Shown: positions 14,041 through 37,643 of the stretch, one piece after another
Layout: each line of letters begins with the position of its first letter
Numbering within the stretch: the stretch's first letter is position 1
Source of the DNA: an uncultured Lachnospiraceae bacterium
GTDB taxonomy: Bacteria; Bacillota; Clostridia; Lachnospirales; Lachnospiraceae
Direction of reading: 5' to 3'
DNA length: 64,000 nucleotides
NCBI GenBank assembly: GCA_947626475.1
Contig: CANQSK010000002.1
Span: forward strand, 5,115 to 69,114
Notes under the pieces: model-generated
Told to the model about the DNA's origin: nothing
Seen by the model: only the letters and a program-made list of their open reading frames with translations
Databases searched by the model: none
Program-made: the position numbers and the translations under genes

Positions 14041-14051
14041 GAAATACCTCT

Positions 14052-17318: not shown

Positions 17319-17330
17319 AATCTTCTCCCT

Positions 17331-19560: not shown

Positions 19561-21420
19561 TTACCCCTCTCTCCATTTAAAAATATGAGTGCTGAAAGGC
19601 GCCACCCGAATCTCCACCGAATACGGACGTCCGTCCCGCTCAATCGGCTCTGAAACCACCGGATGGTCATTTACCGTTCCGCCGCCCCCAAATTCCCTGT
19701 CATCGCTGGACAAAAGCTCCTGCCAGCATCCGGCATAGGGCACTCCCGCCCAGTAGCTCTCGTGGGCCTCGGCCCCGAAATTACAGACAACCAGAAGCGT
19801 CTCCCGGAGAAGGCCGCTCTTTCTTAAGAACACAAGTATGTTGTCCTGACTGTTCAGGCAGTCTATCCACTCAAATCCGTCCGGATGGGAATCCAGACGG
19901 TACAATGCCGGCTGAGTCCTGTACAGACGGTTCAGCGCCTTGACGTAGGCCTGCATATTCCGGCCGGTATCCTGTCCCATAAAAAGAATCTTCCTGCCTG
20001 GATGCGTCATCCAGTAACCGTACGCCGCCCGCAGGTTGGCCTGCCGTTCTTCCTCTGCCGCCCCTGCCATACGGCTGACCAGAGGCTTTGCCCCGTTGTC
20101 CGCGTCGTCGTGGGTAAAGCCCACGATAAAGTCCTCGCTGTAAGCATACAGCATACTGTAAGTCACCTGACTGTAGCTGCGGCTGCGGGCCTGGGACCCG
20201 CACGCCATGTACCGGAGAAAATCGCTGCTCCAGCCCAGATTCCACTTGTAATCAAAACCCAGGGCCCCTTCCTTCAGATCTCCCGTCACCTGGGCCCACA
20301 TCTCCGACTCCTCGGCGATCAGAAGGGCTCCCTCCTCCTTTTTGTGGAAGACAGATGCCAGATGCTTCAGAAATTCCACCGCCTCAAGATTCTCATTGCC
20401 GCCGTACAGGTTGGGAACCCACTGTCCCGGCTGCTTGTCATAATCCAGATACAGCATCAGGGCCATGGATGTGACGCGGATCCCGTCCGCGTGAAACCTG
20501 TCCGCCCAGGACAGGGCGCTGGCGATCAGGAAATTGGATACCTGGGGCCGCCCGTAGTTGAAAAGAAGGGTTCCCCACCGGGGATTTTCTCCCTGCCGGA
20601 CGTCAAGATGCTCATACACGCAGGTCCCGTCGAACCGGGCCAGTCCTGCCTGATCTTTGGGGAAATGGGACGGCACCCAGTCAAGAATCACCCCGATTTC
20701 CCGGCTGTGCATATAATCGACGAAATACTGAAAATCCGCGGGCGTTCCGTAACGGCTGGTAGGCGCGAAATAACCGGTGGTCTGAAATCCCCAGGAGGCA
20801 TCCAGGGGATGTTCCATGACCGGCAGAAGCTCTACATGGGTATAGCCCATCTCCTTCACGTACCGAGCCAGCCCCTCCGCCAGCTCTCTGTAGCCGCGAA
20901 ATTCTGTCCCGCTCTCTTCAGCCTTTCCTCCCATCCAGGTGCCCAGATGCACTTCGTAGATGGAAATGGGACCGTCCCTGCGGTTTTTTTCGGCCCTTCT
21001 GCCGCACCAGTCTTTATCTGTCCAATCGTAGTGATCCGCGTCCCAGACAATGGACGCGTTGTTCGGACGGAGCTCCCCATAGGTGCCGTAGGGATCCGCT
21101 TTCAGCACCGTCTCCCCCGCTTCGGATTTCACCGCGTACTTGTAAAGGTCCCCCTGCTTCAGACCCGGAACAAACAGTTCGTAAACGCCGGAATCGCCCA
21201 GCTTCTTCATGGGATGGCTTTCCCTGCTCCACCGGTTAAAATCCCCTGCCACACAGACGCTCACTGCCCTGGGCGCCCACACGGCGAAATGAACGCCCTC
21301 AACTCCCTCGGACTCCGCCGGATGCGCCCCAAGCTTCCGGTAAATGTCATAACAGATTCCCGCGGAAAACGCCCGAAGCGTCTCCTCCGTAATCCACGGT
21401 CCAGCCGTCTCTCTCCCCAT
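19561..21420 (-). CDS. glgB: GlgB-like 1,4-alpha-glucan branching enzyme homologue with the catalytic nucleophile substituted (probable pseudoenzyme)
   Basis: CBM48 (GVHFAVWAP), SIYEVHLGTW, GYTHVELLPVMEHP, GVILDWVPSHF and IAEES are present, but region II reads DGIRVTSM instead of DG(I/L)RVDAV. Confidence 0.88.
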   Translation of the reverse strand: MGRETAGPWITEETLRAFSAGICYDIYRKLGAHPAESEGVEGVHFAVWAPRAVSVCVAGDFNRWSRESHPMKKLGDSGVYELFVPGLKQGDLYKYAVKSEAGETVLKADPYGTYGELRPNNASIVWDADHYDWTDKDWCGRRAEKNRRDGPISIYEVHLGTWMGGKAEESGTEFRGYRELAEGLARYVKEMGYTHVELLPVMEHPLDASWGFQTTGYFAPTSRYGTPADFQYFVDYMHSREIGVILDWVPSHFPKDQAGLARFDGTCVYEHLDVRQGENPRWGTLLFNYGRPQVSNFLIASALSWADRFHADGIRVTSMALMLYLDYDKQPGQWVPNLYGGNENLEAVEFLKHLASVFHKKEEGALLIAEESEMWAQVTGDLKEGALGFDYKWNLGWSSDFLRYMACGSQARSRSYSQVTYSMLYAYSEDFIVGFTHDDADNGAKPLVSRMAGAAEEERQANLRAAYGYWMTHPGRKILFMGQDTGRNMQAYVKALNRLYRTQPALYRLDSHPDGFEWIDCLNSQDNILVFLRKSGLLRETLLVVCNFGAEAHESYWAGVPYAGCWQELLSSDDREFGGGGTVNDHPVVSEPIERDGRPYSVEIRVAPFSTHIFKWREG

Positions 21421-24808: not shown

Positions 24809-27800
24809 CTAAGATTCAAAATCTTCCTTAATCACATCCCAGGCCGCTTCCACACTGTAATGCCGCCGGATAAAGTCCTGGGTTCTCCGGCTCATGGCCA
24901 GGCAGGCCTCCGGATCCCCGTAGATAGCCGCGGCCACCTCCGCAAAAGCTTCCGGCTGATCGGCAATGGCCATGACCTCCCCGGCCTCGGGAATGCCCTC
25001 GGCACCGATGGTTGTCGTTACAACGGCGGCTCCATGATACAGGGCCTCCACGATCTTTCCCTTCACGCCCGCGCCGTAGCGGAGAGGCACAACCACCATG
25101 CGGGTCGTATCATACAGCCTGACCAGTTCCTCCTCGCTGACGAATCCCTTGATGACGATCCCGCTGCCCGGCTGCTCCAGTTCTTTGATCTCATCGGTCA
25201 CCCTGGAGCCTGCCACATAAAAGTCCGGCGGGGTTTTGCCCTCCGCCTCCATGTTCCGGCGGATCAGCGGATAGACCTCCCTGGCGAACCAGAGTACCGC
25301 GTCCGCGTTGGGCGGATGAGCGAAGCCTCCTACAAACAGGAGGCCTTCCCTCTTCTCAAAGTCCTCCGGAATGTTTTCCCTGAAACGGTCGTAGACATAG
25401 GCCACAATATCCTTTACGGCGATCTTCTCATCTTCCGCGCTGACGGCCTCCTTCTCCACAAAGGAGGGATAGTAAGATATATCTGCCTTGTAGAACAGGG
25501 ACATCTCTATGGCCTTCCAGTACTCGGCGGAGCTTAAGCGCTCCTCGTCTTTCGTAAGCATATACTCCCTGCCCTCCCGCAGGAAATGCAGGTCGTGTCC
25601 GTAGTAAATGATCTTGCAGTCCGTATTCTCCCTCAGGAAATCGATATACTTGATCGCGATATGGGGCCTGTTCAGATAAGCTATGGCAATGTCCTTCCCG
25701 TGCTCCTTCAGCCAGTTCCAGATACCGGCCTCGTAGCCGGCGCCGGACAGGATCTCAATTCCCATCTGTTCCAGGACAGTGGAATAAGGCTCCTCGTGAG
25801 CAAAATTATCACCAAGGAATTTGACCACAAACCCTTTCTCCAAAAACATCTTCAGATACTGGAATGTCGTCTTGGACCCGGCATCCTTGTCGTAGGTAGG
25901 CACATAGTGGTCCACCACCAGGATGATCTTCTTTCCCATGCTCCGCTCTCTGGCACGGAAGGGATCCGGATTGCCCGTGTTTTCACACTGCTCCGCCAGC
26001 TGAACGGCCCATTTTTCCCTCAGCTTTTCAGAGTTTTCCACCTGATACCGCTTAAGGCCCTCTCCCTGAAGGTCGGTCCCGTTGGAGACGCCCTCATAGT
26101 GGATCACTTTGGACAGGGGCTGATACACTACCCGGTACCCGGCCTTTCTCACCTCGAAGGCCAGATCCGAATCCTCGCAGTAGGCGGGAGCATACCGCTC
26201 ATCAAAACCGCCGATCTGATCCCACAATTTTTTGGACAGCAGGATCGCCGCGCCGGAAATATAGTCCACATCTTTGACGTAATTGTATTCCGGTTTGTCC
26301 GGATCGTCCATGCGTCCGTAATTCCACCCGGATCCGTCGCTCCAGATGATGCCTCCGGCTTCCTGAAGCTTTCCGTCCGGATAGACCAGCTTAGAGCCCA
26401 CCATTCCAATGGAATCATCCGACTGAATCAGCCGCACCAGAGAACTGAGCCAGCCGTCCGTCACCTGAGTATCGTTATTCAGAAACATCAGATACCGGCC
26501 TCTGGCCTTCTCCGCCCCGTGATTGCAGTTCTTCAGAAAGCCCTGATTCGTCTCATTCCTACAGAGCACCACGCCCTGGGCATACCGGTCCAGATGCTCC
26601 GTAGCGTCTGTGGACACATCGTCGGCAATAATAACCTCATAGGACACATCCTGCGTGTGAGCCAGAATCGACGCCAGACACAGATAGGTATACCGGACCT
26701 GGTTGTACGCGGGAATGATGATGGACACCTCCGGGTTCTCCGCATAAGGAAACACCAGTTTCCCATGCTCACGGTACACATCTCCTATGGCAAAATCACC
26801 GTCTTTCAGGTTGCGCCCCTCCTCCGTCCGGTAGAATCGGAAAGAGCGGACAGGATGAAGCAGATATTCTTTTCTGTAATGGAGCCGCTTTCTTTCCAGG
26901 GAGCCCTTGGGATACCTGGCGTTGAATTTCTCTCCCAGCTTCCTGCGGACCTTGAAAACCAGAGCCTCATGGCCGTTCAGATACGTCAGCGTTTTGCCCA
27001 TCTCGTCAATCTCATGGCGCAGATCGCGAATCATCGCTTCCAGATTCGTCACATGATTGTCTGTGAGCCGTTTCACCTCCGTCATCTTCCGCATGACGGT
27101 GTCCTGCTCCTTAATCTGAAACTTCAGCCGTTCTTCTCTCTCTCTGGTCTGTTCCAGTTCACTGGCCACACGCCGGTACTCATCCTCCAGCTGGTCACAG
27201 TCCGCAAACAGCTTTGTATCCACCAAATAGTTCTTCAGATAAATCTTCTGATTTTCACCATGGACGTAATACTGGAAAGAAAGCTCCATCTCCTCATAAA
27301 TCTTCTGGGCCTGTGCGCTGATGCCAAAACGGACCAGCCACTGACCCAAAGAACCGTACTCCGTCAGCAGGCTCTTAAACTGCCGGTAAGCGTAAAAAAG
27401 GATCCGGTAACGGATAAACTCCACCGGAATAGGGAAGGAAAACACCCACTCATAGTCGAGGCAGTACATTCCGTCATCCGTCAGAAGTATATTTTCAAAC
27501 AGCAGGTCAATATTGGAGACACGGAAACAGGCCAGGGCTTCCCCCTCCTCCTTCATCTTCTCAAGGAGAGCCTCCATGGATTCCCGGCCGAATATCAAAG
27601 CGAAGGCCTCGCTGGCCGCAAAGGGAATCACCGCTTCCTCCTCCACTGCCAGCAGAAGATCAATGGTCTGCTGCATCAGCTCCGCAGGTTCCTTACCCGC
27701 GCGGATCTCCTCATCCAGCCTTCCCAGCAAAGACTTCCCCTGCAGATAGGGAAACCGGCAGCTCCCCGCATCTGAGCCAATCTGAGGATGAAGATAATTC

Positions 27801-28804
27801 AAGAGCTCATGCTGGTTGGTCAGGGCCTCGCAGTTGACGGCAAACGCCTGAATGTGCGGCTCTCCCACCGGAGCAAGAGCCGATTTTTCCACATAACGTC
27901 TCCCCTCATTCCCGTAAATAATAGTCTTAAGCTGAAACTCATCCTCCCGAATCCGGTTGTATTTCAAATATTGGGGACCGTCCTCCTGCAGCTTCCGCCC
28001 CCCGTTCTTTCTCCAGATGATCAGGTAGCTGCTGGCATACTGATCGAACTGGCCGTCCCGACAGACATCGTCATAGGCGGAAGCAAGATCCAGAAACATA
28101 TACTGGGGAAAATCATAGGCCGCTATGGTATCCGTCAGATCCCCCTCTTTCGGCAGATAAGCATCGGAGAAGATAGATACCGGCAGCTTATAGTCCGGCA
28201 TGGGGTAATAAAACTCCAGATCCTTTCCGCTGCCGTCCTCAGAAAGGAGCTCTGTTATAGTCTTTTTTGAGAAGCTGCAGTCGTCTCTTTTCGCCCCCGC
28301 CCAGTATTTCAGCCCAAAGGGATTGCCGGCTGCCGCCAGCAGCTGGCCGTCTTCCTTAAGGAACTCTCTGGCAAGGCGGATCTGCTCTCTGCAGTCCTCC
28401 TCCAGCGTTCCGATCAGCACTACATAGTCGTACCGCTCCTCCGTCTGCGCCAGATATTCCTCCAGACTCCCCTGAACATAAGTGACATTTCCGCATTTTC
28501 CTGACTCTGTGTGGCGCAGCCGGTTAATCTCCAGATTTACCCAGGAGCTGTCAAGAACATCCACCTTGGATACCCGGCGGCTGTACAGCCCGGTCAGCGC
28601 GCCAAAATCAGAGCCGACCTGAAGCAGCGTACCCTCCTTGCGGAATGGGTACCACTCCAGCAGATTCTCTCTCATGGGAGAAAGCGCGTACAGATAGTCA
28701 AGACTTACATTGGTCCGAAGGGCCGCCCTCGTATCCTCCCCGTAAGTCTTCACCACTCCCAGCACTTTCCGTTCCAGTTCTGTTCTCAATTTTTCCGATC
28801 TCAT
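24809..28804 (-). CDS. Multidomain glycan biosynthesis protein: SAM-methyltransferase-like, kinase-like, coiled coil, GT2 and GT4-like domains (1331 aa)
   Basis: LQVGSDFGALTG (motif I-like, aa 61-72); NIDLLFENIL and LDYEW (kinase catalytic loop and DFG-like); heptad helix about aa 538-610; VSIIIPAYN/IADDVSTD/FLNNDT (GT2); FVGGFAHPPN...PLRYGAGVKGKIVEA (GT-B). Confidence 0.85.
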   Translation of the reverse strand: MRSEKLRTELERKVLGVVKTYGEDTRAALRTNVSLDYLYALSPMRENLLEWYPFRKEGTLLQVGSDFGALTGLYSRRVSKVDVLDSSWVNLEINRLRHTESGKCGNVTYVQGSLEEYLAQTEERYDYVVLIGTLEEDCREQIRLAREFLKEDGQLLAAAGNPFGLKYWAGAKRDDCSFSKKTITELLSEDGSGKDLEFYYPMPDYKLPVSIFSDAYLPKEGDLTDTIAAYDFPQYMFLDLASAYDDVCRDGQFDQYASSYLIIWRKNGGRKLQEDGPQYLKYNRIREDEFQLKTIIYGNEGRRYVEKSALAPVGEPHIQAFAVNCEALTNQHELLNYLHPQIGSDAGSCRFPYLQGKSLLGRLDEEIRAGKEPAELMQQTIDLLLAVEEEAVIPFAASEAFALIFGRESMEALLEKMKEEGEALACFRVSNIDLLFENILLTDDGMYCLDYEWVFSFPIPVEFIRYRILFYAYRQFKSLLTEYGSLGQWLVRFGISAQAQKIYEEMELSFQYYVHGENQKIYLKNYLVDTKLFADCDQLEDEYRRVASELEQTREREERLKFQIKEQDTVMRKMTEVKRLTDNHVTNLEAMIRDLRHEIDEMGKTLTYLNGHEALVFKVRRKLGEKFNARYPKGSLERKRLHYRKEYLLHPVRSFRFYRTEEGRNLKDGDFAIGDVYREHGKLVFPYAENPEVSIIIPAYNQVRYTYLCLASILAHTQDVSYEVIIADDVSTDATEHLDRYAQGVVLCRNETNQGFLKNCNHGAEKARGRYLMFLNNDTQVTDGWLSSLVRLIQSDDSIGMVGSKLVYPDGKLQEAGGIIWSDGSGWNYGRMDDPDKPEYNYVKDVDYISGAAILLSKKLWDQIGGFDERYAPAYCEDSDLAFEVRKAGYRVVYQPLSKVIHYEGVSNGTDLQGEGLKRYQVENSEKLREKWAVQLAEQCENTGNPDPFRARERSMGKKIILVVDHYVPTYDKDAGSKTTFQYLKMFLEKGFVVKFLGDNFAHEEPYSTVLEQMGIEILSGAGYEAGIWNWLKEHGKDIAIAYLNRPHIAIKYIDFLRENTDCKIIYYGHDLHFLREGREYMLTKDEERLSSAEYWKAIEMSLFYKADISYYPSFVEKEAVSAEDEKIAVKDIVAYVYDRFRENIPEDFEKREGLLFVGGFAHPPNADAVLWFAREVYPLIRRNMEAEGKTPPDFYVAGSRVTDEIKELEQPGSGIVIKGFVSEEELVRLYDTTRMVVVPLRYGAGVKGKIVEALYHGAAVVTTTIGAEGIPEAGEVMAIADQPEAFAEVAAAIYGDPEACLAMSRRTQDFIRRHYSVEAAWDVIKEDFES

Positions 28805-28806
28805 GT

Positions 28807-30144
28807 TTATCCTTTCGTCTTCACAAGCGTTGCTTCCACTTCCGATTCCATATCGTAGACGCCAACCGTATTTTTGTTGGAGATCACCGTCAGATTCAGG
28901 ATATCGTAAAGCCGGTGATACACCACATGCTCGCCCTGCTCAAAGCCGGTGCAGCTCATGGACAGCAGATACTCGCCCCCCTGCAGAGTCATCTTCTGAG
29001 TAAAAGATACCTGATATTCATCTCCGCTGCCTACCGGCTTAATGTCGGTTCCCTCATACATGGTGTTGGTCCCTGACAGGTCAGTCCCTTTTTTGTCCTT
29101 GATGGTATAAGTAAAAATCGGCGTCTGAATCGGGGCGTGAAACCGGATCTTCTCCCGGATCGTAAACTGCTCCCCCTTCAGAAGAAGGTTCGTCAGATTG
29201 CCGCGCTCGTCAAAAAGTCCCATATCATATATCTCAGCCCGCCCGTCGCCGTACTCGGTGCGCTCGGGATTGATCGTCAGCTTATCCTTCATCAGGCCGG
29301 GGGCATTCCTGCCGGCGTCCGCCATCCCCTGGCCGGGTTCCTCCGCCGGACCGCCGGAGCCCGACTCTTTCCTGCGCCGGTCCTCCTCCAGCTCTTCCGC
29401 CAGAGAGTCCATCTGGTTGGCCAGAATCTTCTTATACAGGTCTACCATATGACCTGCCGTCCCCTCAGCCACAAAGTTCCCCCTGTTCAGAAGAACCACC
29501 TTGTCGCAATACTTGAGGATACTGCCCATGTCGTGGGTCACCATAAGGATCGTCGTTCCCCGCTGGCGGATTTCCTCCATCCTGCGGTAGCACTTCGCCT
29601 GGAAAAATACGTCTCCCACCGACAGCGCCTCATCCACGATCAGTATCTCCGGCTCCACATTGATCGCCAGGGCAAACGCCAGGCGCACAAACATGCCGCT
29701 GGAGTAGGTCTTTATCGGCTGATACACAAAATCACCGATGTCCGCGAAGTCCAGAATATCATCCAGCTTGGCATCCATCTCCTTTCTGGAGAAGCCCATC
29801 ATGCTGCCGTTCATATAAATATTTTCTATTCCGGTATAATCCATATTGAATCCGGCCCCTAGCTCTAGAAGCGCGGACACGGTGCCGTCCACCTTCACCT
29901 CGCCTGTAGTAGGCGAGAGCACGCCGGTAATGATCTTGAGGATCGTGGACTTCCCGGAGCCGTTGGTTCCGATAATGCCCACGGTCTGACCCTTGTCCAC
30001 AGTAAAGGAAAGCCCGTTCAGGGCGTAAAATTTCTTATGGTATTCCCGGTGAAAGGGGCTCAGGGACTCCTTCAGCCGGTCAATCGGCCTGTCGTACAGC
30101 TTATATACCTTTGTCACATTGTTTACGATGATGGCCTGTTCCAT
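28807..30144 (-). CDS. wzt: Polysaccharide ABC exporter ATPase with C-terminal carbohydrate-binding (Wzt_C-like) domain
   Basis: GTNGSGKST, YSSGMFVRLAF and ILIVDEALSVGD motifs plus a beta-rich extension of about 150 aa. Start 30144 follows AAGGAGG. Confidence 0.9.
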   Translation of the reverse strand: MEQAIIVNNVTKVYKLYDRPIDRLKESLSPFHREYHKKFYALNGLSFTVDKGQTVGIIGTNGSGKSTILKIITGVLSPTTGEVKVDGTVSALLELGAGFNMDYTGIENIYMNGSMMGFSRKEMDAKLDDILDFADIGDFVYQPIKTYSSGMFVRLAFALAINVEPEILIVDEALSVGDVFFQAKCYRRMEEIRQRGTTILMVTHDMGSILKYCDKVVLLNRGNFVAEGTAGHMVDLYKKILANQMDSLAEELEEDRRRKESGSGGPAEEPGQGMADAGRNAPGLMKDKLTINPERTEYGDGRAEIYDMGLFDERGNLTNLLLKGEQFTIREKIRFHAPIQTPIFTYTIKDKKGTDLSGTNTMYEGTDIKPVGSGDEYQVSFTQKMTLQGGEYLLSMSCTGFEQGEHVVYHRLYDILNLTVISNKNTVGVYDMESEVEATLVKTKG

Positions 30145-30154
30145 TCCATCCTCC

Positions 30155-30967
30155 TTAAAGCACATCAGAAAAATGCGGCCGCAGACGCTTAAATACCTTA
30201 AGGCCTCCCAGGAACAGCACTGCTGTCACCACCCAGAAATACAAGGTATTCAGGGGCCTTTCCCAGAATCCGCTTCCGGTCAGCATACTGTCCCGATAAC
30301 CGGCGCAGATATAGTACACCGGATTGATCTTCAGCACCTGGTCAAGCCAGGCGGGACGGCTGGGAAACATGGCCGGGTCCCACATGATCGGCGTCAGCCA
30401 CATGCCGAACTGAAGACAGATATTTACAATCTGGGCCATATCCTTAAAAAAAACGTTGACCGCGCTGGTAAAATAGGTCAGCCCCAAAGAAAACACGCTG
30501 GCCGCGAAGCTGTAGTAGACCACCTGCGCCCAGAAAATACCGGGCATCCGGCCATACAGCAGAAACACCGCCGCCATGATGATGACAAAGATCCCGTGGA
30601 CCAGCAGGCAGGAGACCATCTTGATGATCGGCAGAATCTCAACCTGAAAGACTACCTTCTTCACCAGATAGTTATACTCCTGCAGGCAGCCGGTACCGGC
30701 GTTTAAGACCTCACTCACATAGAACCAGGGCACGATCCCCGGTATCAGCCACAGCACATAAGGAAAACCGGGAACCGGAGGCGCGTTCTTAAATCCCATC
30801 TGAAACACAAAAAAGTAGATAAGCACCGTAACCACCGGCTGGACAAACATCCATACCACGCCGAAATAGGAGCCTACAAACCGTTTGTGAAAGTCAGCCT
30901 TCGACAGGTCCCAGATCAATTTTCTCTTCCTGACAATCTCCCTGGACAGAGACAACAAATAATTCAT
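30155..30967 (-). CDS. wzm: Polysaccharide ABC exporter permease
   Basis: DFHKRFVGSYFGVVWMFVQP and INPVYYICAGYRD ABC-2 permease motifs; adjacent to wzt. Confidence 0.9.
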   Translation of the reverse strand: MNYLLSLSREIVRKRKLIWDLSKADFHKRFVGSYFGVVWMFVQPVVTVLIYFFVFQMGFKNAPPVPGFPYVLWLIPGIVPWFYVSEVLNAGTGCLQEYNYLVKKVVFQVEILPIIKMVSCLLVHGIFVIIMAAVFLLYGRMPGIFWAQVVYYSFAASVFSLGLTYFTSAVNVFFKDMAQIVNICLQFGMWLTPIMWDPAMFPSRPAWLDQVLKINPVYYICAGYRDSMLTGSGFWERPLNTLYFWVVTAVLFLGGLKVFKRLRPHFSDVL

Positions 30968-30980: not shown

Positions 30981-31535
30981 TCAGAATTTGAATGTATCCT
31001 TCAAGCCGCCCCATTTTTTATCCTTTTCTGACAGGATCAGCTCCATATCCCCGGGAATCGGCCACTCCACTCCAATCTCCGGATCATTGTAGGCAAGTCC
31101 GCCCTCGTCTCCCGGATGATAAAAATCCGTAACCTTATAGGCGAACTCCGCCTCGTCGGACAGCACCAGAAAGCCGTGGGCAAAGCCTTCTGAGATATAG
31201 AACTGCTTTTTATTCTCCGCCGTCAGCTCCACGCCGAACCACTTGCCGTAGGTTTTGGAATTTGTCCGCAGATCCACCGCCACGTCAAAGACACGGCCCC
31301 TCAGAACCCGCACCAGCTTTCCCTGAGGATACTGCTTCTGGTAGTGAAGTCCCCGCAGAACGCCTCTTACCGACATGGACTGATTATCCTGAACAAATAC
31401 CATGGGAAGACCGGCCGCCTCAAAGTCCCGCTGGTTGTAGGTCTCCACAAAATATCCTCTCTCATCCTTAAACACAGTCGGCTCAATCACATAAAGTCCA
31501 TCTATCTCACAAGGAGTCACTGTTATCTTGCCCAT
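30981..31535 (-). CDS. rmlC: dTDP-4-dehydrorhamnose 3,5-epimerase
   Basis: FKDERGYFVE, QDNQSMS.RGVLRGLHYQ and EGFAHGFLVLS motifs. Start at MGKITV (31535) after GGGAAGGA. Confidence 0.93.
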   Translation of the reverse strand: MGKITVTPCEIDGLYVIEPTVFKDERGYFVETYNQRDFEAAGLPMVFVQDNQSMSVRGVLRGLHYQKQYPQGKLVRVLRGRVFDVAVDLRTNSKTYGKWFGVELTAENKKQFYISEGFAHGFLVLSDEAEFAYKVTDFYHPGDEGGLAYNDPEIGVEWPIPGDMELILSEKDKKWGGLKDTFKF

Positions 31536-31549
31536 AATCCTTCCCTTTC

Positions 31550-33193
31550 TTACAATCTGGCGCAGACTACGCTGAACAGCCTGAGCACCACATATAGATT
31601 TACGCAATACATCACATACAATATACTACGGTCTTTATCCTTTGTCAAAACCAACCAGTCATTTTTGCAGGCCATGAGAAGAGCCGGCAGAAACGGCAGA
31701 AAATACCGCCCCTGTACGCCCTGGATCACCGTTGAAGTCTGGGGCGTCCAGGCGATCAGCATGGACAGCATCAGAGCCGCGCCGCAGACCGCGCAGACGA
31801 AGACAATCCACACTCGGGCGGCTCCGGTTATAAAGATCTGCTCTCCCGGCTTCCGAAGCGCCAGAAGAAGCAGTCCCAGGCTCATGGCCAGCACCGCCGG
31901 ATACGGCACGTTCAGCACCGGGTCCAGATTGCCCAGTCTGGAGCCTATCATGGTCATATGGTATTCTTCCGTCTGGTGAACCAGCGTATTATAAAACATC
32001 TGCGCCGTCAGCATCGGACGATGGAGAATCGTAGTCAGGCTGAACCCGGCCTCCTCCATCCCGTAAGTGACCCCTTCCGCCGCTGTGGCGTAATTGACCA
32101 CCACCCGGCCGTTGACCAGCAGCATGGCCGCTGCCCAGGCTCCCGCCACGGCTGCCGCGGAAAGGAACCATTGTCCCCAGCCGCCGAACTTCTTTACGGG
32201 AATCAGCAGGCACAACCCCATCATGGCCCCGTAGACCATTTTGCAGGGACCGGCCACGGCCATCAAAAGAGCAAGAAGCAGAACATCCCGTATCTGCACC
32301 CGGTCTTTCCCGTAAGCCAGATACAGACATTCAGACGTAAACAGGAACATGCAGGCCAGGATCATCACATCATAGGAAAAAGATGACGCCAGGTTCAGAG
32401 TCATGGGCAGGAGCGCCGCGCCGAACAGCACCTCCTTCCCAAAGGGAAGCCGCCTCATGGCAAGCTGCGTCATTCCCACAAAAAACAGAAGATTGCACAG
32501 ACGTCCCAGCCAGAGAAGCCACATGCTGTTCAGATTCAGGAGCCGGGCCAGAGAAATTCCCAGCGCCTGAGGCACATAGGCCAGAGGCGTCGTCACCACC
32601 GGCGGATAGGCGGACAGAGCCATCTTCTCCGGTTCCTCCGGTTTTCCGCCGTAATCTCCCTCATGGATGGCCCGATAGGTTTTCTCCTCCAGCACCTGTC
32701 CCAGGACAACGCCGTCCCGGCCATCCTCTTCCGCCGCCTGTTTCACCAGATATGGCTCTGTCTCCTGTACGACGTAATCCCCATACACATCCTCCGCAAA
32801 CCAGTCACGGGCCCGCACCAGCACCCGGCCGTCCTCACTGTTGGACGGCTGACCCAGCATACGGCTGGACAGCTGATAAGCGCTGATGTAATGGCTCACC
32901 TCGTCGGGGGCGGAAAGAGGCGGGAGTACCACAAGATACAGAATCCCCAGCAAAAGTCCGGCCCAAGGATACACCTGCTCCAGACGCAGGTTTCTGCCTC
33001 CCCGTTCCTCAAAAAGGAGAACTCCCGTCAGCGCGGCGCCAGCCAGGCTCAGCGCCAGCAGTCCCCAGTACCATCCGACCAGCCAGCCGTCGCCGCTGCC
33101 GACGGCCCCGGCCTCTACCATAATCAGATGCCACAGCCCCGCCAGGGCCACTGCCGGGATTCCCCACAGCCAGCGTCTCTTACTCTTTCTCAT
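31550..33193 (-). CDS. DUF2142-family polytopic membrane protein (GacL-like GT-C glycosyltransferase candidate)
   Basis: PPLSAPDEVSHY loop after the first TM segments; SFSYD and GVQGRYFLP motifs; many TM helices. Confidence 0.72.
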   Translation of the reverse strand: MRKSKRRWLWGIPAVALAGLWHLIMVEAGAVGSGDGWLVGWYWGLLALSLAGAALTGVLLFEERGGRNLRLEQVYPWAGLLLGILYLVVLPPLSAPDEVSHYISAYQLSSRMLGQPSNSEDGRVLVRARDWFAEDVYGDYVVQETEPYLVKQAAEEDGRDGVVLGQVLEEKTYRAIHEGDYGGKPEEPEKMALSAYPPVVTTPLAYVPQALGISLARLLNLNSMWLLWLGRLCNLLFFVGMTQLAMRRLPFGKEVLFGAALLPMTLNLASSFSYDVMILACMFLFTSECLYLAYGKDRVQIRDVLLLALLMAVAGPCKMVYGAMMGLCLLIPVKKFGGWGQWFLSAAAVAGAWAAAMLLVNGRVVVNYATAAEGVTYGMEEAGFSLTTILHRPMLTAQMFYNTLVHQTEEYHMTMIGSRLGNLDPVLNVPYPAVLAMSLGLLLLALRKPGEQIFITGAARVWIVFVCAVCGAALMLSMLIAWTPQTSTVIQGVQGRYFLPFLPALLMACKNDWLVLTKDKDRSILYVMYCVNLYVVLRLFSVVCARL

Positions 33194-33539
33194 CGGATTC
33201 CTCCCGGCGCAGCTTTTCTTCCAGAGCCATCTGCTGCACCAGATCCTTGATTCTGGTCTCCAGCTGAGAGATATGAATGGTCATATAAAACACCTTCACG
33301 ATCAGCACAAAAATCGCGAACAGGAACAGAAAATTGGCCGTGGAGTAGATTCCCAGGCAGTGGGCGGCAAAATCAGCCACCCTCGGAAAAATACTGAACA
33401 CAACCAGCACCAGAGACAGCACCAGCCAGAAAACGGCGCTCTCAATCTGTATCTTGGACTGGCGGATCTTGCGTATCATCAGAAACATGGTGGTTACCGA
33501 CACCAGGACCAGCAGAACACGCAGAGTCGTGGTCATCAT
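33180..33539 (-). CDS. DUF2304-family small membrane protein (GacJ/EpaJ-like)
   Basis: 119 aa, three TM helices, FLFLFAIFVLIVK...ISQLETRIKDLVQQMAL coiled tail. Confidence 0.8.
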   Translation of the reverse strand: MMTTTLRVLLVLVSVTTMFLMIRKIRQSKIQIESAVFWLVLSLVLVVFSIFPRVADFAAHCLGIYSTANFLFLFAIFVLIVKVFYMTIHISQLETRIKDLVQQMALEEKLRREESDEKE

Positions 33540-33543
33540 AACG

Positions 33544-34506
33544 TTATCCCTCCTTCTCCGCTTTCTTCCAGTATTCCCGGTTGGAGCTGCAGAACAGCAC
33601 CAGACGCTTCGGCAGGAATCTGTACCGCCTGCCCAGCCAGTAACCGGCGTATTTGCAGCCGCTTCCTATCACCAGCGAAGGCAGAAGCCAGATCCGGCCG
33701 TGACTCAGAAGCCATCCGGCCGTCTGCTTTACCAGCCGGATTCCCTCCCCCTCGGAGGAAATGCCGGCAAACGCCTCCGGATGATCCGCCTGAGATACCG
33801 CCAGGTCGAAATTTCTCCGAAACTGCTGGGCAAAAGACAGATTGTGGGAATGAATTACCCTGGCGTCCGCCGCGTAGGCTATGGCGTATCCGGCCTGAAT
33901 CACTCCCGCGGCATAGATCATATCCTCATTGAAAATCGTTCTGGTGATAAAACCGCCCTGTTTTTCAAAAATCTCCCGCCAGTACCCGCAGCACACATTG
34001 GAAGCGAAAAAAGTCTTGATCCCCAGACGGGGCAGATCCTCCTTTGTCTTCACCGCGCTTTCCGCCGGGTAATTGAAGGTTCTGGTGTACCGCTCAATGA
34101 CCCTGCAGTCCCTGGCCGGCATCTGACGGGCATAAGCCATGGCCACCGTCTGTCCGGCCGGCCCTTTCTGTTCCAGAGCCTGCACCAGCCGCTCCACCAG
34201 GCGGCTGTCCTGGGGAACCGCGTCGTCCGTCATAAATATCATAATATCCGCTCTGGAAAAGCCGGCCCCCAGGTTCCTGGACGCGCCATGGTCAAACTGT
34301 TCTTTGGTCACATGATGGACCGTCAGATTGCCGATTCCCTGATAGCCGGCCTCGTTCCAGTATTTTTTCTCCGTGTTGACGGCTATGATGCGGTTCACCG
34401 GCCAGGTCTGCTTCTCCAGCATCCCCAGCAGCCTGGCAAAACGCCTGTCCGGCTTATACACCGGAATGATCACATCCACCGTCAAATTCCTGTCGTTCAT
34501 CCGCAA
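33544..34506 (-). CDS. GT2 glycosyltransferase, rhamnosyltransferase-like
   Basis: VDVIIPVY, FDHGASRNLGA, FMTDDAVP, FASNVC and FNEDM motifs. Confidence 0.82.
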   Translation of the reverse strand: MRMNDRNLTVDVIIPVYKPDRRFARLLGMLEKQTWPVNRIIAVNTEKKYWNEAGYQGIGNLTVHHVTKEQFDHGASRNLGAGFSRADIMIFMTDDAVPQDSRLVERLVQALEQKGPAGQTVAMAYARQMPARDCRVIERYTRTFNYPAESAVKTKEDLPRLGIKTFFASNVCCGYWREIFEKQGGFITRTIFNEDMIYAAGVIQAGYAIAYAADARVIHSHNLSFAQQFRRNFDLAVSQADHPEAFAGISSEGEGIRLVKQTAGWLLSHGRIWLLPSLVIGSGCKYAGYWLGRRYRFLPKRLVLFCSSNREYWKKAEKEG

Positions 34507-35804
34507 ACCTCTTTACTGTTCTTTCCTCTGATGCAGGCCAGCAGGCCCCCTGCCACAAAACCGGCGGCCATGACCGCCATCAGGATAAGGTAGGCCCAGG
34601 CGGCCCCAAAAAGTCCCGCCCTCTTCACCAGCGCGGGCGCCAGCGCCGCCGCCAGAAGCGTAAGCGCCGCGTAGATTCCAAATATCACCTTCTGCCGGCG
34701 AAGGATCACCAGCACATAATAGTACAGATTCAGTATCGCGTAAAAGCCTCCGCCGGCTACCACGACCACAAACGGCATGTGATAACGGACCAGACCTCCC
34801 GCGTAGGACGGCCCCAGAATCTCTTCCATGATGCCCAGGACCGGCCGTCCCAGCCCCCAGGCCAGACAGACTGCCAGCAGGCTCAGCCCGGCGACCAGGG
34901 CCGAAATCCGCCTCAGCATCCGGTCAAAGGAGGGATAATCCTTCCCGGTCCAGTAGTCCGTCAGGTACGTAAGCACCGGGCGGATCACAAAGCCCGCAGC
35001 CAGATTGATCACCGAGGTGGGCATAAATATAATATTAAAATACCCCGACGACGCGTCATCCATATGAGCGTCTATGGCATATTTTGCCGCCGAAAAAATA
35101 TAAAAATCCAGAAATACCGACACAAACAGCAGCACTCCCGCCCGGGTAAGAGACGCCGCGCGGCAGAAATCCCCTCCGGTATCCACCGGAGAAAGCCGCT
35201 TCATCACCGTTACGTCAAACAGCAGCACTCCCGCGGCCTGAGCCGCAACCGCCGCCGCGCAGGCCGGTATCAGCCTCCGGCAGGCCAGAAGCACCGTCAG
35301 AAATACCGACACGGAAAGGATCGTCCGGAAGGTATTGGATTTGCCGGTCAGATGAAGATTTCCGCTCCGCTGGAACTCAGACTCATACACATCCGCGAAT
35401 CCGTCGATCACCTTGTAGCAGACCAGCAGAAACACCGCCGCCGCCTTCTCCGCCCGGTAACCGCAAAACAGCAGCCAGCAGGCTCCCGCCGCCAGCGCCA
35501 GTCCGCAGGTCAGATACCGGTGGCGCAGGTAATCGCCGAACCGGTATTCTCCGGCCCCGTCGGTGATCTGAAAAGGCCGGAGTCCGAAATAAGCCACAAT
35601 GAACATCTGCTGCCCGAGAGTGCTGTAGCCGAAGGCGAACACGCCGCCTTCCTCCTCTCCCGCGATCCTCATTACCAGAAACGCCAGAACCATGCTGGCG
35701 AAGGCATAGCAGAAGCTGCCTGTCATGTTCCAGATAATATTCTGCTTTTCCCTGTCAGGCCCCGTCCTCATCAGAAGACCGGCCCACCGATCCGCCAGGC
35801 TCAT
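34497..35804 (-). CDS. Wzx/MOP-type oligosaccharide flippase
   Basis: About 12 TM helices, N-terminal NIIWNMTGS, KYAID motif; lies within a glycan cluster. Confidence 0.72.
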   Translation of the reverse strand: MSLADRWAGLLMRTGPDREKQNIIWNMTGSFCYAFASMVLAFLVMRIAGEEEGGVFAFGYSTLGQQMFIVAYFGLRPFQITDGAGEYRFGDYLRHRYLTCGLALAAGACWLLFCGYRAEKAAAVFLLVCYKVIDGFADVYESEFQRSGNLHLTGKSNTFRTILSVSVFLTVLLACRRLIPACAAAVAAQAAGVLLFDVTVMKRLSPVDTGGDFCRAASLTRAGVLLFVSVFLDFYIFSAAKYAIDAHMDDASSGYFNIIFMPTSVINLAAGFVIRPVLTYLTDYWTGKDYPSFDRMLRRISALVAGLSLLAVCLAWGLGRPVLGIMEEILGPSYAGGLVRYHMPFVVVVAGGGFYAILNLYYYVLVILRRQKVIFGIYAALTLLAAALAPALVKRAGLFGAAWAYLILMAVMAAGFVAGGLLACIRGKNSKEVCG

Positions 35805-35825
35805 GAGATCCCGGTTCTCCTTTCT

Positions 35826-36521
35826 TCACCGCTTGCGGAAATTCTGTATCAGCAGAATGGACAGCAGCATACGAATCATATAATTGGCCGCCACAGCAGG
35901 CTTCAGATAACTTTCTCCCCCGGCACGGGGCGCGATCACCACCGGAACCTCCGCCACCCGGGCTCCCTGCTTCAGCAGGTAGGATATGGTGTCCGGCTCC
36001 GGCCCGTAATTCAGCTTCAGGGCGAACTCCCTGATCATATCCCGGTTGAACATCCGCATGCCGGAGGTGGGATCCATCACTTTCACCCCCGTAGTCATCC
36101 GGATCGCGGCTGACAGGATACGGCTGCCGATCATCCTCATGGAGGCGTCCTTGTGACCTTCTATAAACCGGCTTCCGATGACAATATCGTAGCCTTCTTC
36201 CATCTTCCTTCTCATGGCCCCGATGTACTCCGGCCGGTGCTGCCCGTCCCCGTCAAACTGAACGGCACAGTCATATCCTTTTTCGTAGGCGTATTTCATT
36301 CCCGCCTGAAAACATCCGGCAAGGCCCAGGTTCACCGGCAGGTCCAGAAGATTATAGCCCTTCTCCCGGCAGATGGCGGCAGTCCGGTCCGTGGAGCCGT
36401 CGTTGACTACCAGATAATCCGTCTCCGGGCACAACGCTGTGAGCTCGTCCACCACCATCTCAATATTTGCTTCCTCGTTAAATGCCGGTATGATCGCCAG
36501 CACCTTCTTAAGCCGCGCCAT
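35826..36521 (-). CDS. DPM1-like GT2, polyprenol-phosphate glycosyltransferase (GacI/GtcA-like)
   Basis: IIPAFNEE, VVNDGSTD, QFDGDGQH, IVIGSRF and DPTSGMR motifs. Start MARLKK (36521) after GGAG. Confidence 0.85.
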   Translation of the reverse strand: MARLKKVLAIIPAFNEEANIEMVVDELTALCPETDYLVVNDGSTDRTAAICREKGYNLLDLPVNLGLAGCFQAGMKYAYEKGYDCAVQFDGDGQHRPEYIGAMRRKMEEGYDIVIGSRFIEGHKDASMRMIGSRILSAAIRMTTGVKVMDPTSGMRMFNRDMIREFALKLNYGPEPDTISYLLKQGARVAEVPVVIAPRAGGESYLKPAVAANYMIRMLLSILLIQNFRKR

Positions 36522-36529
36522 TTTTTCTC

Positions 36530-37639
36530 CTACTCCAGTATAATATCGCATATCATATCCACAATTTCCGGCTCCAGATCCGCGTAAAGGGGCAGAGTCA
36601 GCACCTGACGGGAAATCTTCGCCGCCACCGGCGTATCCGCCTCGCTGAAGCGGTCCCGGTAACAGTCATAATTGTTGACGCAGGGGTAAAAATATTTCCT
36701 GGCATGGATATCACAGGAGGCCAGCTCCGCAAATATCTGATCCCGGTCCTTCCTGTACCCGTCAAAAACCACCGGCATATACGCGTAATTGTAGCGGATC
36801 CGCGGATTTTCCCGGCACAGCCGGATTCCCTTTACTCCCTCCAGGCGCTGCCGGTACCGCGCGGCCAGGGCTTTGCGCTTTTCGATCTCCCTGTCCACAT
36901 AGCGCAGGTTGCAGAGCCCCATAGCCGCCTGAAATTCATTCATCTTGCCGTTGGCTCCCACGGCATCCACTTTTTCATAATCCGTGATTCCGAAATTCTT
37001 AAGCTCGTACAGCGCCGGAGCCAGGGAGGGATCCCGAAACGCCACGGCCCCTCCTTCTATGCTGTGAAATACCTTTGTGGCATGGAAGCTGAACATGGAC
37101 GCGTCGCCGAAGGTTCCCGCGCCCTTTCCGTCCAGGGTCTCCCCAAAAGCGTGGGCCGCGTCATAGATCACCTTAAGGCCGTGCCGCCCCGCGATCTCCT
37201 CAATGCGTTCCATGTCGCAGAGATTTCCATATACATGAACCGGCACGATGGCGGATGTCCTGTCCGTGATCAGAGCCTCCAGCTTGTCCGCGTCCATTGT
37301 ATAGTCCTCAGGATCAATGTCGCAGAATACGGGAGTCAGCCCGTTGCGTACAATGGCATGAGTGGTCGACGCAAAGGTAAACGGGGTCGTGATCACCTCG
37401 CCGCTGAGATTCATGGCCTGGAGCGTCAGCTCCAGGGCCATGTGGCCGTTGACGAACAGCTCCAGGCTGGACACACCCAGATATTCTTTTATCCGCGCCG
37501 CAAACTGCTTATGATACTGCCCCATATTGGTAAGCCACGCGCTGTCCCACAGGGGCTTTAACATCTCTGCGTACTCCTCAAGGGGCGGCAGAGACGACCT
37601 GGTTACCAGCACGGGATGGTCCGGTTTTTCTCTCTTCAT
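36530..37639 (-). CDS. DegT/DnrJ/EryC1/StrS sugar aminotransferase, VioA-like
   Basis: VTRSSLPPLEEY, WLTNMG, IYDAAHAFG, FSFHATKVFHSIEGG and GANGKMNEFQA motifs. Confidence 0.85.
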   Translation of the reverse strand: MKREKPDHPVLVTRSSLPPLEEYAEMLKPLWDSAWLTNMGQYHKQFAARIKEYLGVSSLELFVNGHMALELTLQAMNLSGEVITTPFTFASTTHAIVRNGLTPVFCDIDPEDYTMDADKLEALITDRTSAIVPVHVYGNLCDMERIEEIAGRHGLKVIYDAAHAFGETLDGKGAGTFGDASMFSFHATKVFHSIEGGAVAFRDPSLAPALYELKNFGITDYEKVDAVGANGKMNEFQAAMGLCNLRYVDREIEKRKALAARYRQRLEGVKGIRLCRENPRIRYNYAYMPVVFDGYRKDRDQIFAELASCDIHARKYFYPCVNNYDCYRDRFSEADTPVAAKISRQVLTLPLYADLEPEIVDMICDIILE

Positions 37640-37643
37640 ATCG

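Follow-up and report, generated by a model that had tools for sequence, protein, structure and literature searches.

The window analysed here comprises 64,000 nt of the Lachnospiraceae contig CANQSK010000002.1, and all coordinates are positions within it. On the minus strand three genes follow each other in the order wzm, wzt and an ORF of 1331 aa. The wzm gene (30155–30967, minus strand) encodes the 270 aa ABC-2 type permease of a glycan exporter, recognized by Pfam ABC2_membrane (E = 3.2e-12) and by a weak NCBIfam match to galactan_ABC_perm Wzm/RfbD, and it overlaps the start of wzt by 11 nt. According to Pfam the wzt gene (28807–30165, minus strand) codes for a protein of 452 aa with ABC_tran and Wzt_C domains. 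The ATG of the 1331-aa ORF (28804) is located 2 nt past the wzt stop codon (28807–28809), which is the spacing given in the preliminary description of this DNA, and its ribosome-binding site AAAGGA overlaps the 3’ end of wzt. The short gap and the overlapping ribosome-binding site indicate translational coupling of the two genes. All elements listed in the preliminary description were found where it had placed them.

In Wzt, an ABC nucleotide-binding domain precedes a beta-sandwich domain of the Wzt_C type, and both PF00005 and PF14524 pass their cutoffs. The nucleotide-binding domain (Wzt residues 8–255, 29401–30144, minus strand) was detected by ABC_tran PF00005 with E = 1.1e-23, its best NCBIfam matches being TagH/Wzt-type exporters. 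The carbohydrate-binding domain (Wzt residues 302–439, 28849–29262, minus strand) exceeded the PF14524 cutoff of 30.4 bits with a score of 144.5 (E = 2.9e-42), in agreement with the C-terminal binding domain proposed earlier. Among PDB sequences it matched 2r5o (E = 7e-6, entry title ‘Putative ATP binding component of ABC-transporter’), which we take to be the C-domain of E. coli O9a Wzt, as well as chains 7k2t, 8dku and 6o14 (E about 1e-3, titled ‘ABC transporter’), presumably Aquifex aeolicus Wzt. Median identity in 80 related loci is 83% for the nucleotide-binding domain and 84% for Wzt_C. We presume that Wzt_C reads a cap at the chain end.

Directly upstream of wzm lies rmlC (30981–31607, minus strand), encoding dTDP-4-dehydrorhamnose 3,5-epimerase. 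The NCBIfam equivalog TIGR01221 was reached with 257.7 bits (cutoff 155.75) and Pfam PF00908 with E = 3.2e-74, and rmlC adjoins the module in 31 of the 80 loci. As rmlC is adjacent, the sugar is probably L-rhamnose. Pfam, NCBIfam and synteny define a further group of accessory genes at 31550–36551 (minus strand) coding for a DUF2142 membrane protein, a 320-aa GT2, a 435-aa ORF without family and a 241-aa GT2. They are conserved together in about 30 of the 80 loci and probably serve adaptor or side-chain functions. The 241-aa GT2 is similar to polyprenyl-phosphate-sugar synthases (NCBIfam PpgS-like, E = 5.6e-29, under cutoff). Genes for rmlA, rmlB, rmlD, an initiating phosphoglycosyltransferase or a ligase were not found within the 64-kb window.

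Relatives of the 1331-aa protein occur in at least 358 species genomes. We examined 80 loci, mostly from Lachnospiraceae or other Clostridia. In every one of them wzt is located immediately upstream, and wzm is adjacent in just 28 of 72 related loci. Like the window, 72 of the 80 encode GT2 and GT-B modules in the same ORF. The host belongs to a monoderm Clostridia lineage, as expected from the Gram-positive setting suggested before. Among the carriers in culture are C. symbiosum and Lacrimispora indolis.

The 1331-aa ORF (24809–28804, minus strand) consists of five parts as judged from ORF call, Pfam and AF2: a methyltransferase fold, a kinase-like domain, a heptad helix, basic helices and finally GT2 plus GT-B modules. 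An AF2 model of residues 1–690 (pLDDT 87.7) shows the methyltransferase fold, an alpha/beta domain and a single helix spanning residues 533–612. No transmembrane segment was found in the protein. Since more than 119 full-length homologues of 52–84% identity exist, the ORF is not a chance reading frame. Pfam, AF2 and Foldseek together recovered the methyltransferase-like, kinase-like, coil, GT2 and GT4-like domains that had been read from the letters of the sequence. Databases label the relatives merely ‘glycosyltransferase’.

The N-terminal part (residues 1–265, 28010–28804, minus strand) was assigned to the class I SAM-methyltransferase fold by AF2, Foldseek and HMM comparison. AF2 gives a Rossmann fold with pLDDT above 90, for which Foldseek returned SAM methyltransferases and WbdD at E values of about 1e-9. 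Sequence matches to UbiG-type methyltransferases are weak (E about 1e-3 to 5e-5; PDB UbiG 4kdr, E = 1e-3). An HMM of the N-terminal family detected orthologues of K. pneumoniae O7 ORF6-N with E values from 4e-21 to 1.6e-14, and 100 shuffled controls yielded no score at all. Experiments in vitro established that ORF6(O7) acts on the terminal rhamnose first as a kinase and then as a methyltransferase, which leaves a terminal methyl-phosphate (Kelly et al., J Biol Chem 2024, PMC11231755). Motif I of the window protein is atypical, reading V-G64-S-D66-F-G68 instead of the usual GxGxG. Of 119 close homologues, 89 have Asp and 29 have Gly at position 66, and of 41 more distant representatives with a methyltransferase, 16 carry Glu at the central position of the motif (GAECG). 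This position aligns with G93 of ORF6(O7), one of two glycines (G91/G93) that were jointly mutated to inactivate the methyltransferase (PMC11231755); with GSDFG, the window protein does not have the canonical SAM-binding glycine loop. To judge from this motif, the transfer of methyl groups may have changed or ceased, and methylation is less certain than phosphorylation because the loop reads G-S-D-F-G.

The acidic substitution would also fit an alternative in which the protein is the same chain-terminating machine as proposed below, with either a bare phosphate as cap or a methyltransferase-fold domain that does not methylate the phosphate. Retention of the domain may then be due mainly to a structural or substrate-binding role alongside the kinase. 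Pointing in this direction, the glycine that is replaced in the window protein was replaced, together with a second one, in the inactivated ORF6(O7) (PMC11231755), many relatives of the kinase domain start with the kinase at residue 3 and have no methyltransferase in the same protein (some of these kinase-only relatives, being very short, may represent fragments), and the methyltransferase is a separate ORF in 7 of the 80 loci. Where it is split off, however, it is still encoded immediately upstream. The remaining methyltransferase residues are moreover under strong purifying selection, with 12 positions (G64, G68, T71, D85, N106, D126, G132, N161, G164, K166, Y167 and G170) each conserved to at least 92%, 29 close homologues still have Gly at residue 66 and some homologues still reach Pfam methyltransferase models. 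We regard this alternative as unlikely. D85 is the ribose-binding acidic position of the domain.

Residues 272–530 (27215–27991, minus strand) were identified by AF2, Foldseek and hhalign as an APH/choline-kinase-like kinase domain, although they match nothing in Pfam, NCBIfam or PDB sequences, profile search included. Modelled alone, the domain reached a pLDDT of 92.4 in AF2, and the best Foldseek matches were APH(3’)-Ia, APH(4)-Ia, macrolide phosphotransferases and choline/ethanolamine/homoserine kinases, with probability 1.00 and TM of about 0.5. The middle domain thus has a kinase fold, as the preliminary description had supposed, but its type is APH/choline-kinase and not Src-like as in WbdD. 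The catalytic set on the minus strand comprises K307 (27884–27886), D433 (27506–27508), N438 (27491–27493), D450 (27455–27457) and E452. These residues and W453 are invariant in an alignment of 76 rows (A1), i.e. 75 homologues and the window protein, which bears out the motif D433-x4-N438, D450YE noted earlier; the catalytic set is intact. In a profile-profile comparison, on which the homology statistics of this domain are based, hhalign aligned the kinase profile over 206 columns with 40 ORF6-N-like proteins, used in place of the K. pneumoniae protein itself, at a probability of 94.9% and E = 4.3e-8. D433-x4-N438 was paired with D445-x4-N450, where D445 is invariant, and LDYEW with LIDxEW. 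D445 of the ORF6-N-like sequences corresponds to the catalytic D441 mutated in ORF6. A comparison of the kinase with truncated OCR-derived fragments gave no significant match. Relatives of the ORF6(O7)-type kinase domain form 2708 representative clusters at E values up to 1e-3, so this domain represents a large family without a Pfam model.

The kinase is followed by a continuous heptad helix (residues 533–612, 26969–27208, minus strand) defined by AF2 and periodicity. Its hydrophobicity shows a period of 3.5 residues, a value reached by none of 2000 shuffles. AF2 confidence is moderate in this monomer model of a short coil (pLDDT about 70–80). The continuous heptad coil expected from the sequence was confirmed, being slightly longer at 80 aa and about 12 nm than the estimated 70 aa and 10 nm. 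AF2 places no beta domain between kinase and coil: helices of the kinase C-lobe extend to about residue 522, with the long helix beginning at 533. The spacing from H515 to E576 varies among 119 homologues, with 54 aa in 92, 61 aa in 12 (including the window protein, +7), 58 aa in 11 and 115 aa in one. The commonest difference, 54 versus 61, equals exactly one heptad. Residues 576–612 are fixed in length across homologues. From homology we presume that the helix is a molecular ruler, and its oligomeric state is likewise what we infer. Behind the coil, AF2, charge and conservation delimit a stretch of short basic helices (residues 613–690, 26735–26968, minus strand; helices 615–630, 636–649, 651–658 and 661–680). 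No other region of the protein is net-basic; its net charge is +8, its length does not vary and its conservation is 70%. It is a candidate membrane-association or docking segment.

A quite different role of the coil would follow if kinase and methyltransferase decorated internal residues or another substrate without terminating the chain. The coil would then serve oligomerization or as a scaffold, and chain length would result from the stoichiometry of transporter to synthase, as in K. pneumoniae O2a. In sequence, the half of the coil next to the membrane (576–612) is indeed conserved, resembling an interaction surface and not a neutral spacer, and the immunostimulatory glucorhamnans of R. gnavus, the sole Lachnospiraceae wall glycans with solved structures, are without a reported cap (PMC12413058). 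Yet the variable part of the coil mostly differs by one heptad, even though variants of 58 and 115 residues exist, and all established ruler systems share the order terminator, coil and GT, in which the terminator occupies the distal end of the coil. In addition, a Wzt with C-terminal CBM is tied to an export-gating terminal cap in all characterized cases (PMC11231755), and a wzt with Wzt_C is adjacent in 80/80 loci. We consider internal decoration very improbable.

The C-terminal half carries two glycosyltransferase modules. The first is a GT2 module of GT-A fold (residues 691–940, 25985–26734, minus strand) supported by Pfam PF00535 (E = 3.7e-25, residues 691–905) and PF13641 (E = 1.6e-11), with a PDB match to chondroitin synthase 2z87 (E = 3.7e-14). 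The second is a GT4-like module of GT-B fold (residues 950–1331, 24812–25957, minus strand) that matches Pfam Glyco_trans_1_4 (E = 2.5e-18, residues 1154–1295), Glyco_trans_1_2 (E = 9.5e-8) and, under cutoff, NCBIfam TIGR03087 (E = 2e-20). Further GT2 genes nearby could do part of the polymerization. Alternatively, the two fused modules would be adaptor or side-chain transferases, the GT2 enzymes encoded upstream would polymerize the glycan and the large protein would mainly be a terminator scaffold. Three more GT2 genes are present in the same minus-strand run (33544–34506, 35826–36551 and 38682–39668), and separate polymerases have precedents, since one polymerase module is separate in K. 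pneumoniae O7 and all of them are in O4 and O9a. In contrast, fused C-terminal GTs are the polymerase in WbbB, ORF6(O7) and WsaE. The GT half is also the most conserved part of the protein (median identity 81% for GT2 and 69% for GT-B) and shows no length variation among homologues, it is always fused behind the coil, also where loci lack upstream GT2 genes, and the 241-aa GT2 resembles enzymes of extracytoplasmic side-chain addition. It is quite improbable that the fused modules are mere adaptor transferases.

In summary, we consider it likely that the 1331-aa protein both extends and terminates the chain in an ABC-transporter-dependent wall polysaccharide pathway of Lachnospiraceae. GT2 and GT-B would act at the cytoplasmic face of the membrane, where they are probably held by the basic helices 613–690, and would extend an undecaprenyl-linked glycan processively. 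The 80-residue coil would keep the kinase and methyltransferase-like domains about 12 nm away from the polymerase, a distance that only sufficiently long chains could bridge. The kinase would then phosphorylate the non-reducing terminal sugar by means of K307, D433, N438 and D450. The methyltransferase-fold domain may subsequently methylate the phosphate, and extension would stop in either case. Binding of the capped end by Wzt_C of the coupled Wzt would admit only finished chains to export by Wzm/Wzt. Homology suggests the two-linkage repeat, the measurement of length and the cap; the substrates and the cap chemistry are likewise putative.

Control of chain length in Gram-positive wall polysaccharides is poorly understood. 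A terminator-ruler-polymerase predicts that the carriers display glycans whose length is defined and whose end is phosphorylated, and this end could be an immune epitope and phage receptor. We tentatively suggest, as a possibility we hold with less than even confidence, that several hundred Lachnospiraceae species provide the first case of phosphate or methyl-phosphate capping of a wall polysaccharide in monoderm (Gram-positive-type) bacteria. If true, the molecular-ruler model could be put to an evolutionary test with the natural coil variants of 54, 58, 61 and 115 residues, the acidic SAM-loop residue could mark changed chemistry (a phosphate-only cap or another donor, for example), and abundant gut commensals could share, as the product, a conserved wall antigen of the rhamnan type whose length and terminal epitope are defined. 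The protein family offers a tractable Gram-positive model with natural variants of coil length.

The preliminary description had taken WbdD of E. coli O9a/K. pneumoniae O3 as its reference. WbdD shares the logic of methyltransferase, kinase, coiled-coil ruler and membrane-proximal region, and in the WbdD/WbdA system the methyl-phosphate cap is read by Wzt_C (PMC3482155), the domain for which the window Wzt matches PDB 2r5o. Foldseek with the 1–690 model aligned WbdD over more than 500 columns (E about 5e-9). However, neither phmmer nor profile search found a sequence match of WbdD to the window protein, and WbdD was absent from the top 50 in the kinase-only Foldseek search, being recovered only with the two-domain model. 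Its kinase is of the Src-type eukaryotic protein kinase-like group, in contrast to the APH/choline kinases matched best here, and WbdD recruits the polymerase WbdA, a protein of its own, through its C-terminus, whereas the polymerase modules are fused in the window protein. The APH-like kinase, the lack of a sequence match and the GT modules in the same ORF set the window protein apart from WbdD.

WbbB of K. pneumoniae O12 (Williams et al. 2017, summarized in PMC11231755) likewise combines terminator, coiled-coil ruler and two GT modules in one chain, with a Wzt CBM gating export. The window protein has this one-chain layout as a matter of architecture only: the terminator of WbbB is the beta-Kdo glycosyltransferase GT99 with modules GT102/GT103, which differs from the methyltransferase and kinase folds found here. 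Geobacillus stearothermophilus WsaE (PMC2943079) is, by description, from a Gram-positive host with tightly packed wzm-wzt-wsaE genes and carries an N-terminal methyltransferase plus two GT (rhamnosyltransferase) domains, its cap being proposed to be read by Wzt. It is without kinase and methylates the sugar directly at 2-O, no coil or ruler is described, and the product is an S-layer protein glycan (PMC2943079). The conserved kinase domain argues for a cap chemistry different from that of WsaE.

The closest known relative is ORF6(O7), with WbdD as an analogue and not an orthologue. By profile comparison both terminator domains are homologous to the ORF6 methyltransferase-kinase of K. pneumoniae O7, although identity is too low for a single-sequence match. 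ORF6(O7) likewise contains a class I methyltransferase, a database-unannotated kinase, a coiled coil and two C-terminal GT modules in this order, and the window protein shows the homologous methyltransferase, an APH-like kinase with catalytic Asp between methyltransferase and coil, and an extended coil before the GTs. The catalytic Asp occupies nearly the same position (D441 in ORF6(O7), D433 in the window) in a D-x4-N loop followed by [IL]-D-x-E-W, the closest kinase structures are AmiN (aminoglycoside-type) for ORF6(O7) and APH(3’)-Ia for the window protein, and in both systems the partner Wzt carries a CBM. ORF6(O7) differs in its Ig-like CBM between kinase and coil, which is not predicted in the window protein, in a GT2+GT2 polymerase with a separate third ribofuranosyltransferase as opposed to GT2+GT-B, in its canonical SAM loop GAGCG versus GSDFG, and in its product, an LPS O antigen of a diderm instead of a glycan from monoderm Clostridia. 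The Ig-like CBM was seen in ORF6 itself and is not clearly defining for ORF6(O7)-type terminators. The single-chain polymerase-ruler-terminator proposed at the outset is supported by all tests that could be run. It is less new than supposed, as ORF6(O7), which is needed for export, already combines terminator and coil with two polymerase modules (PMC11231755), and the design has already been demonstrated by experiment in Klebsiella.

The export genes wzm (30155–30967, minus strand, 270 aa, Pfam ABC2_membrane) and wzt (28807–30165, minus strand, 452 aa, Pfam ABC_tran and Wzt_C) overlap by 11 nt and are followed in the same direction by an ORF of 1331 aa (24809–28804, minus strand), hereafter the large gene. 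Only 2 nt separate the wzt stop codon from the ATG of the large gene, and an AAAGGA ribosome-binding site is located within the final wzt codons. This confirms the gene arrangement of the preliminary description, in which a Wzt with a C-terminal binding domain precedes the large ORF by 2 bp. Wzt_C was assigned by Pfam at E = 2.9e-42, far exceeding the gathering score, and matched 2r5o among PDB sequences at E = 7e-6; this entry, titled 'Putative ATP binding component of ABC-transporter', we take to be the C-domain of E. coli O9a Wzt, the reader of the methyl-phosphate cap. Opposite the large gene, plus-strand ORFs of 225, 729 and 160 aa are found at 24860–28270. We rejected the long plus-strand ORFs (e.g. 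25586–27775) as real genes, since the minus-strand ORF is the full-length conserved one; in a sequence of 54% GC they are most likely its shadows.

In the large protein, Pfam recognized a GT2 domain (residues 691–905, E = 3.7e-25) and a Glyco_trans_1_4 domain (residues 1154–1295, E = 2.5e-18), and the N-terminus gave weak matches to UbiG-like methyltransferases in NCBIfam and PDB sequences. Residues 272–545 returned nothing significant from Pfam, NCBIfam or PDB sequences, either as a single sequence or as an 18-sequence profile, and the fold of this region was therefore established by AF2 and Foldseek. The AF2 model of residues 1–690 (76-row alignment, mean pLDDT 87.7) comprises a Rossmann methyltransferase domain at about 59–265, an alpha/beta domain at 277–530, a single unbroken helix at 533–612 and four shorter helices up to residue 680. 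The Foldseek matches of this model include SAM methyltransferases and also WbdD (4ax8, 4azt, 4azs, 4uw0), with more than 500 columns aligned at E about 5e-9; the TM-scores to WbdD are low because domain orientations differ. When residues 268–540 were modelled alone (pLDDT 92.4), the top PDB matches were APH(3')-Ia, APH(4)-Ia, macrolide 2'-phosphotransferases and the choline kinase LicA, together with ethanolamine, homoserine and methylthioribose kinases, with top matches at a probability of 1.00 and a TM-score of about 0.5. WbdD was absent from the top 50 of this kinase-only search.

Residues K307, D433, N438, D450, E452 and W453 are invariant in A1, the 76-row alignment of 75 homologues and the window protein. 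Presumably K307 is the ATP-binding lysine, D433 and N438 belong to the D-x4-N catalytic loop of APH and choline kinases, and D450, E452 and W453 to their Mg-binding [IL]-D-x-E-[WY] motif. The middle domain had been described as kinase-like from the sequence; the AF2/Foldseek fold is indeed that of a kinase, and the catalytic set in A1 agrees. Its family (residues 272–530, window 27215–27991) has no Pfam model and could merit a Pfam entry of its own; it counts 2708 representative clusters at E-values up to 1e-3 and 2236 when the limit is set at 1e-10. The domain is found by itself or together with a methyltransferase or GT modules, and many proteins of the family begin with it.

Helix 533–612 displays a strong hydrophobic period of 3.5 residues in a stable register (power 97.8, matched by none of 2000 shuffles), and at 0.15 nm per residue it would extend for about 12 nm. 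The coiled coil proposed earlier, estimated at about 70 aa, is thus upheld by both this heptad periodicity and the AF2 helix. The spacing between the invariant residues H515 and E576 was compared among 119 close full-length homologues: 92 have 54 residues, 11 have 58, 12 including the window protein have 61 (exactly one heptad more than 54) and one has 115. Downstream of residue 576 the length is constant as far as the GT2 domain. The homologue with the spacing of 115 instead of 54 residues, P0017 (1413 aa), has 61 residues inserted into the variable coil segment, which would make this stretch of the predicted ruler about twice as long. Such natural coil-length variants could serve to test the ruler model. 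Segment 613–690, the sole net-basic part of the protein (+8), does not vary in length and is 70% conserved; taking the membrane-proximal region of WbdD as a model, we propose it as a candidate membrane-association or docking segment. A transmembrane anchor in the large protein was ruled out, as the top 19-residue hydropathy mean is 1.29 and there is no transmembrane segment.

More than 119 full-length homologues with 52–84% identity were obtained by protein search, their best name being 'glycosyltransferase'. A relative is encoded by at least 358 genomes in a scan that took a single genome for each species. Of these, the best-scoring 80 mostly bear the label of Lachnospiraceae or other Clostridia, with a few MAG bins labelled otherwise; carriers among them are Hungatella, [Clostridium] symbiosum ATCC 14940, Lacrimispora indolis, Clostridium fessum, Brotaphodocola and Ventrimonas, and the closest is a rabbit-gut MAG (80% identity). 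In all 80 loci wzt is located directly upstream of the large gene; wzm is adjacent in just 28 of 72 related loci. Not every locus has the complete fusion: at 7 of the 80 (L052 of C. symbiosum ATCC 14940, L053, L057, L068, L070, L071 and L076) the methyltransferase has an ORF of its own, immediately upstream of that for a kinase-coil-GT2-GT-B protein. In L052 (7956–11930) a methyltransferase ORF of 270 aa lies 6 nt upstream of the 1051-aa protein, wzm is not adjacent, and a DUF6282 protein and a citrate-transporter-family gene are found upstream of wzt.

Median identity to the window protein is 46% for the methyltransferase, 43% for the kinase and 39% for the variable coil, 70% for the conserved coil with the basic segment, 81% for GT2 and 69% for GT-B; for Wzt it is 83% in the nucleotide-binding domain and 84% in Wzt_C. 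Outside the invariant catalytic residues the terminator half tolerates more sequence change. That both the polymerase and the presumed cap reader are strongly conserved suggests a single backbone and a single terminal epitope throughout the family. A fast-evolving Wzt_C that co-evolves with the terminator half was also considered and dropped in view of the median identity of Wzt_C.

Directly upstream of wzm we found rmlC, which passes the NCBIfam equivalog cutoff and is present beside the module at 31 of 80 loci; the window yielded no rmlA, rmlB or rmlD, nor any initiating transferase or ligase. A block at 31550–36551 (minus strand), conserved with the wzm-wzt-large gene module in about 30 of 80 loci, encodes a DUF2142 membrane protein (547 aa), a GT2 (320 aa), a 435-aa ORF lacking Pfam and NCBIfam matches, and a 241-aa GT2 like polyprenyl-phosphate sugar synthases (PpgS/AglJ-like). 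These genes look like adaptor and extracytoplasmic side-chain addition functions. The only solved Lachnospiraceae wall glycans are the R. gnavus glucorhamnans, with a backbone of alternating 2-/3-linked rhamnose and glucose side chains (PMC12413058); as an analogy, not as evidence, a backbone of this kind would be well served by a pair of polymerase modules. The genes at 36530–39668 (minus strand), present in only a few related loci, encode a DesI-like dTDP-4-keto-6-deoxyglucose aminotransferase, an ATP-grasp ligase and a further GT2, and together point to an amino-dideoxy sugar, perhaps with an amino acid as its N-acyl group.

A second glycan cluster at 41389–46953 (minus strand) contains a MOP flippase, two GT2, a GT8 and a UDP-galactopyranose mutase (Glf). 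The flippase has its best match, below cutoff, in an 'O-glycosylation flippase' model, and the cluster is probably Wzx-dependent. An L,D-transpeptidase gene with YkuD and cell-wall-binding repeats (39841–41322, plus strand) lies between this cluster and the ABC-dependent one, and two GlgB/isoamylase-like genes (CBM48 and alpha-amylase; 19561–21420 and 46790–48700, both minus strand) border the glycan region on both sides. A surface-protein locus at 2602–18434 (minus strand) encodes a 3812-aa ORF with SpaA prealbumin-fold domains, a 1088-aa ORF with choline-binding-type repeats and then a DUF6273 protein. The cell-wall-binding-repeat proteins and the giant SpaA-domain protein fit a monoderm host. 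The 861-aa ORF at 53028–55613 (minus strand) has no Pfam family and is mirrored by a plus-strand ORF of near-equal extent (53055–55580), so that either strand may be the coding one.

The closest described counterpart, ORF6 of K. pneumoniae O7, is a 1414-aa protein with a methyltransferase at its N-terminus (Kelly et al. 2024, PMC11231755). Its kinase (223 residues, no database annotation, catalytic D441) has the aminoglycoside-type kinase AmiN as nearest structure and is followed by an Ig-like CBM, a coiled coil and, at the C-terminus, a pair of rhamnosyltransferase modules of the GT2 type; in vitro the enzyme acts on the terminal rhamnose at its 3-OH, by phosphorylation followed by methylation, and export needs the cap (PMC11231755). 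Against short ORF6 fragments ending at the catalytic loop, our kinase profile gave no significant hhalign match (P 0.05). A protein search with a rebuilt sequence of the N-terminal part (ORF6-N) returned more than 3300 relatives of about 600 aa from Proteobacteria and other phyla, with 47–54% identity over 99% of the query. The O7 protein was absent from the returns, the best match having 54% identity, so that the tie to the characterised enzyme goes through its family. In a profile-profile comparison with an alignment of 40 of these relatives the window kinase family matched with a probability of 94.9% (E = 4.3e-8, 206 columns), D433-x4-N438 falling on the invariant D445-x4-N450 and L-D450-Y-E-W on L-I-D463-x-E-W. 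Both predicted terminator domains thus belong to the ORF6(O7)-N superfamily.

Motif I of the methyltransferase reads V-G64-S-D66-F-G68. The central glycine position of GxGxG is Asp in 89 and Gly in 29 of 119 close homologues, and Glu in many distant relatives; elsewhere the domain is strongly conserved, also at the ribose-binding D85. D66 aligns with G93 of ORF6, one of two glycines whose joint replacement abolished methyltransferase activity (PMC11231755). Phosphorylation by the predicted kinase is thus well supported; methylation by the methyltransferase-fold domain is plausible but uncertain.

With a predicted kinase fold, a heptad coil, GT2 plus GT-B modules and a Wzt_C neighbour all present, the fused polymerase, ruler and terminator of the preliminary description is the best-supported mechanism. 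What it adds is the annotation of a very widespread gut-commensal family, together with the natural coil-length variants; the system itself would come as no surprise to a specialist. WbdD is a functional analogue with a kinase of a different type (PMC3482155, PMC11231755). In comparison to ORF6(O7) the large protein lacks the CBM, carries GT2 and GT-B modules instead of two GT2, has an acidic residue in the SAM loop and comes from a monoderm host. The class of coiled-coil terminators and polymerases is already established by WbdD/WbdA, WbbB, ORF6(O7) and WsaE, and the window system is a further, Gram-positive member.
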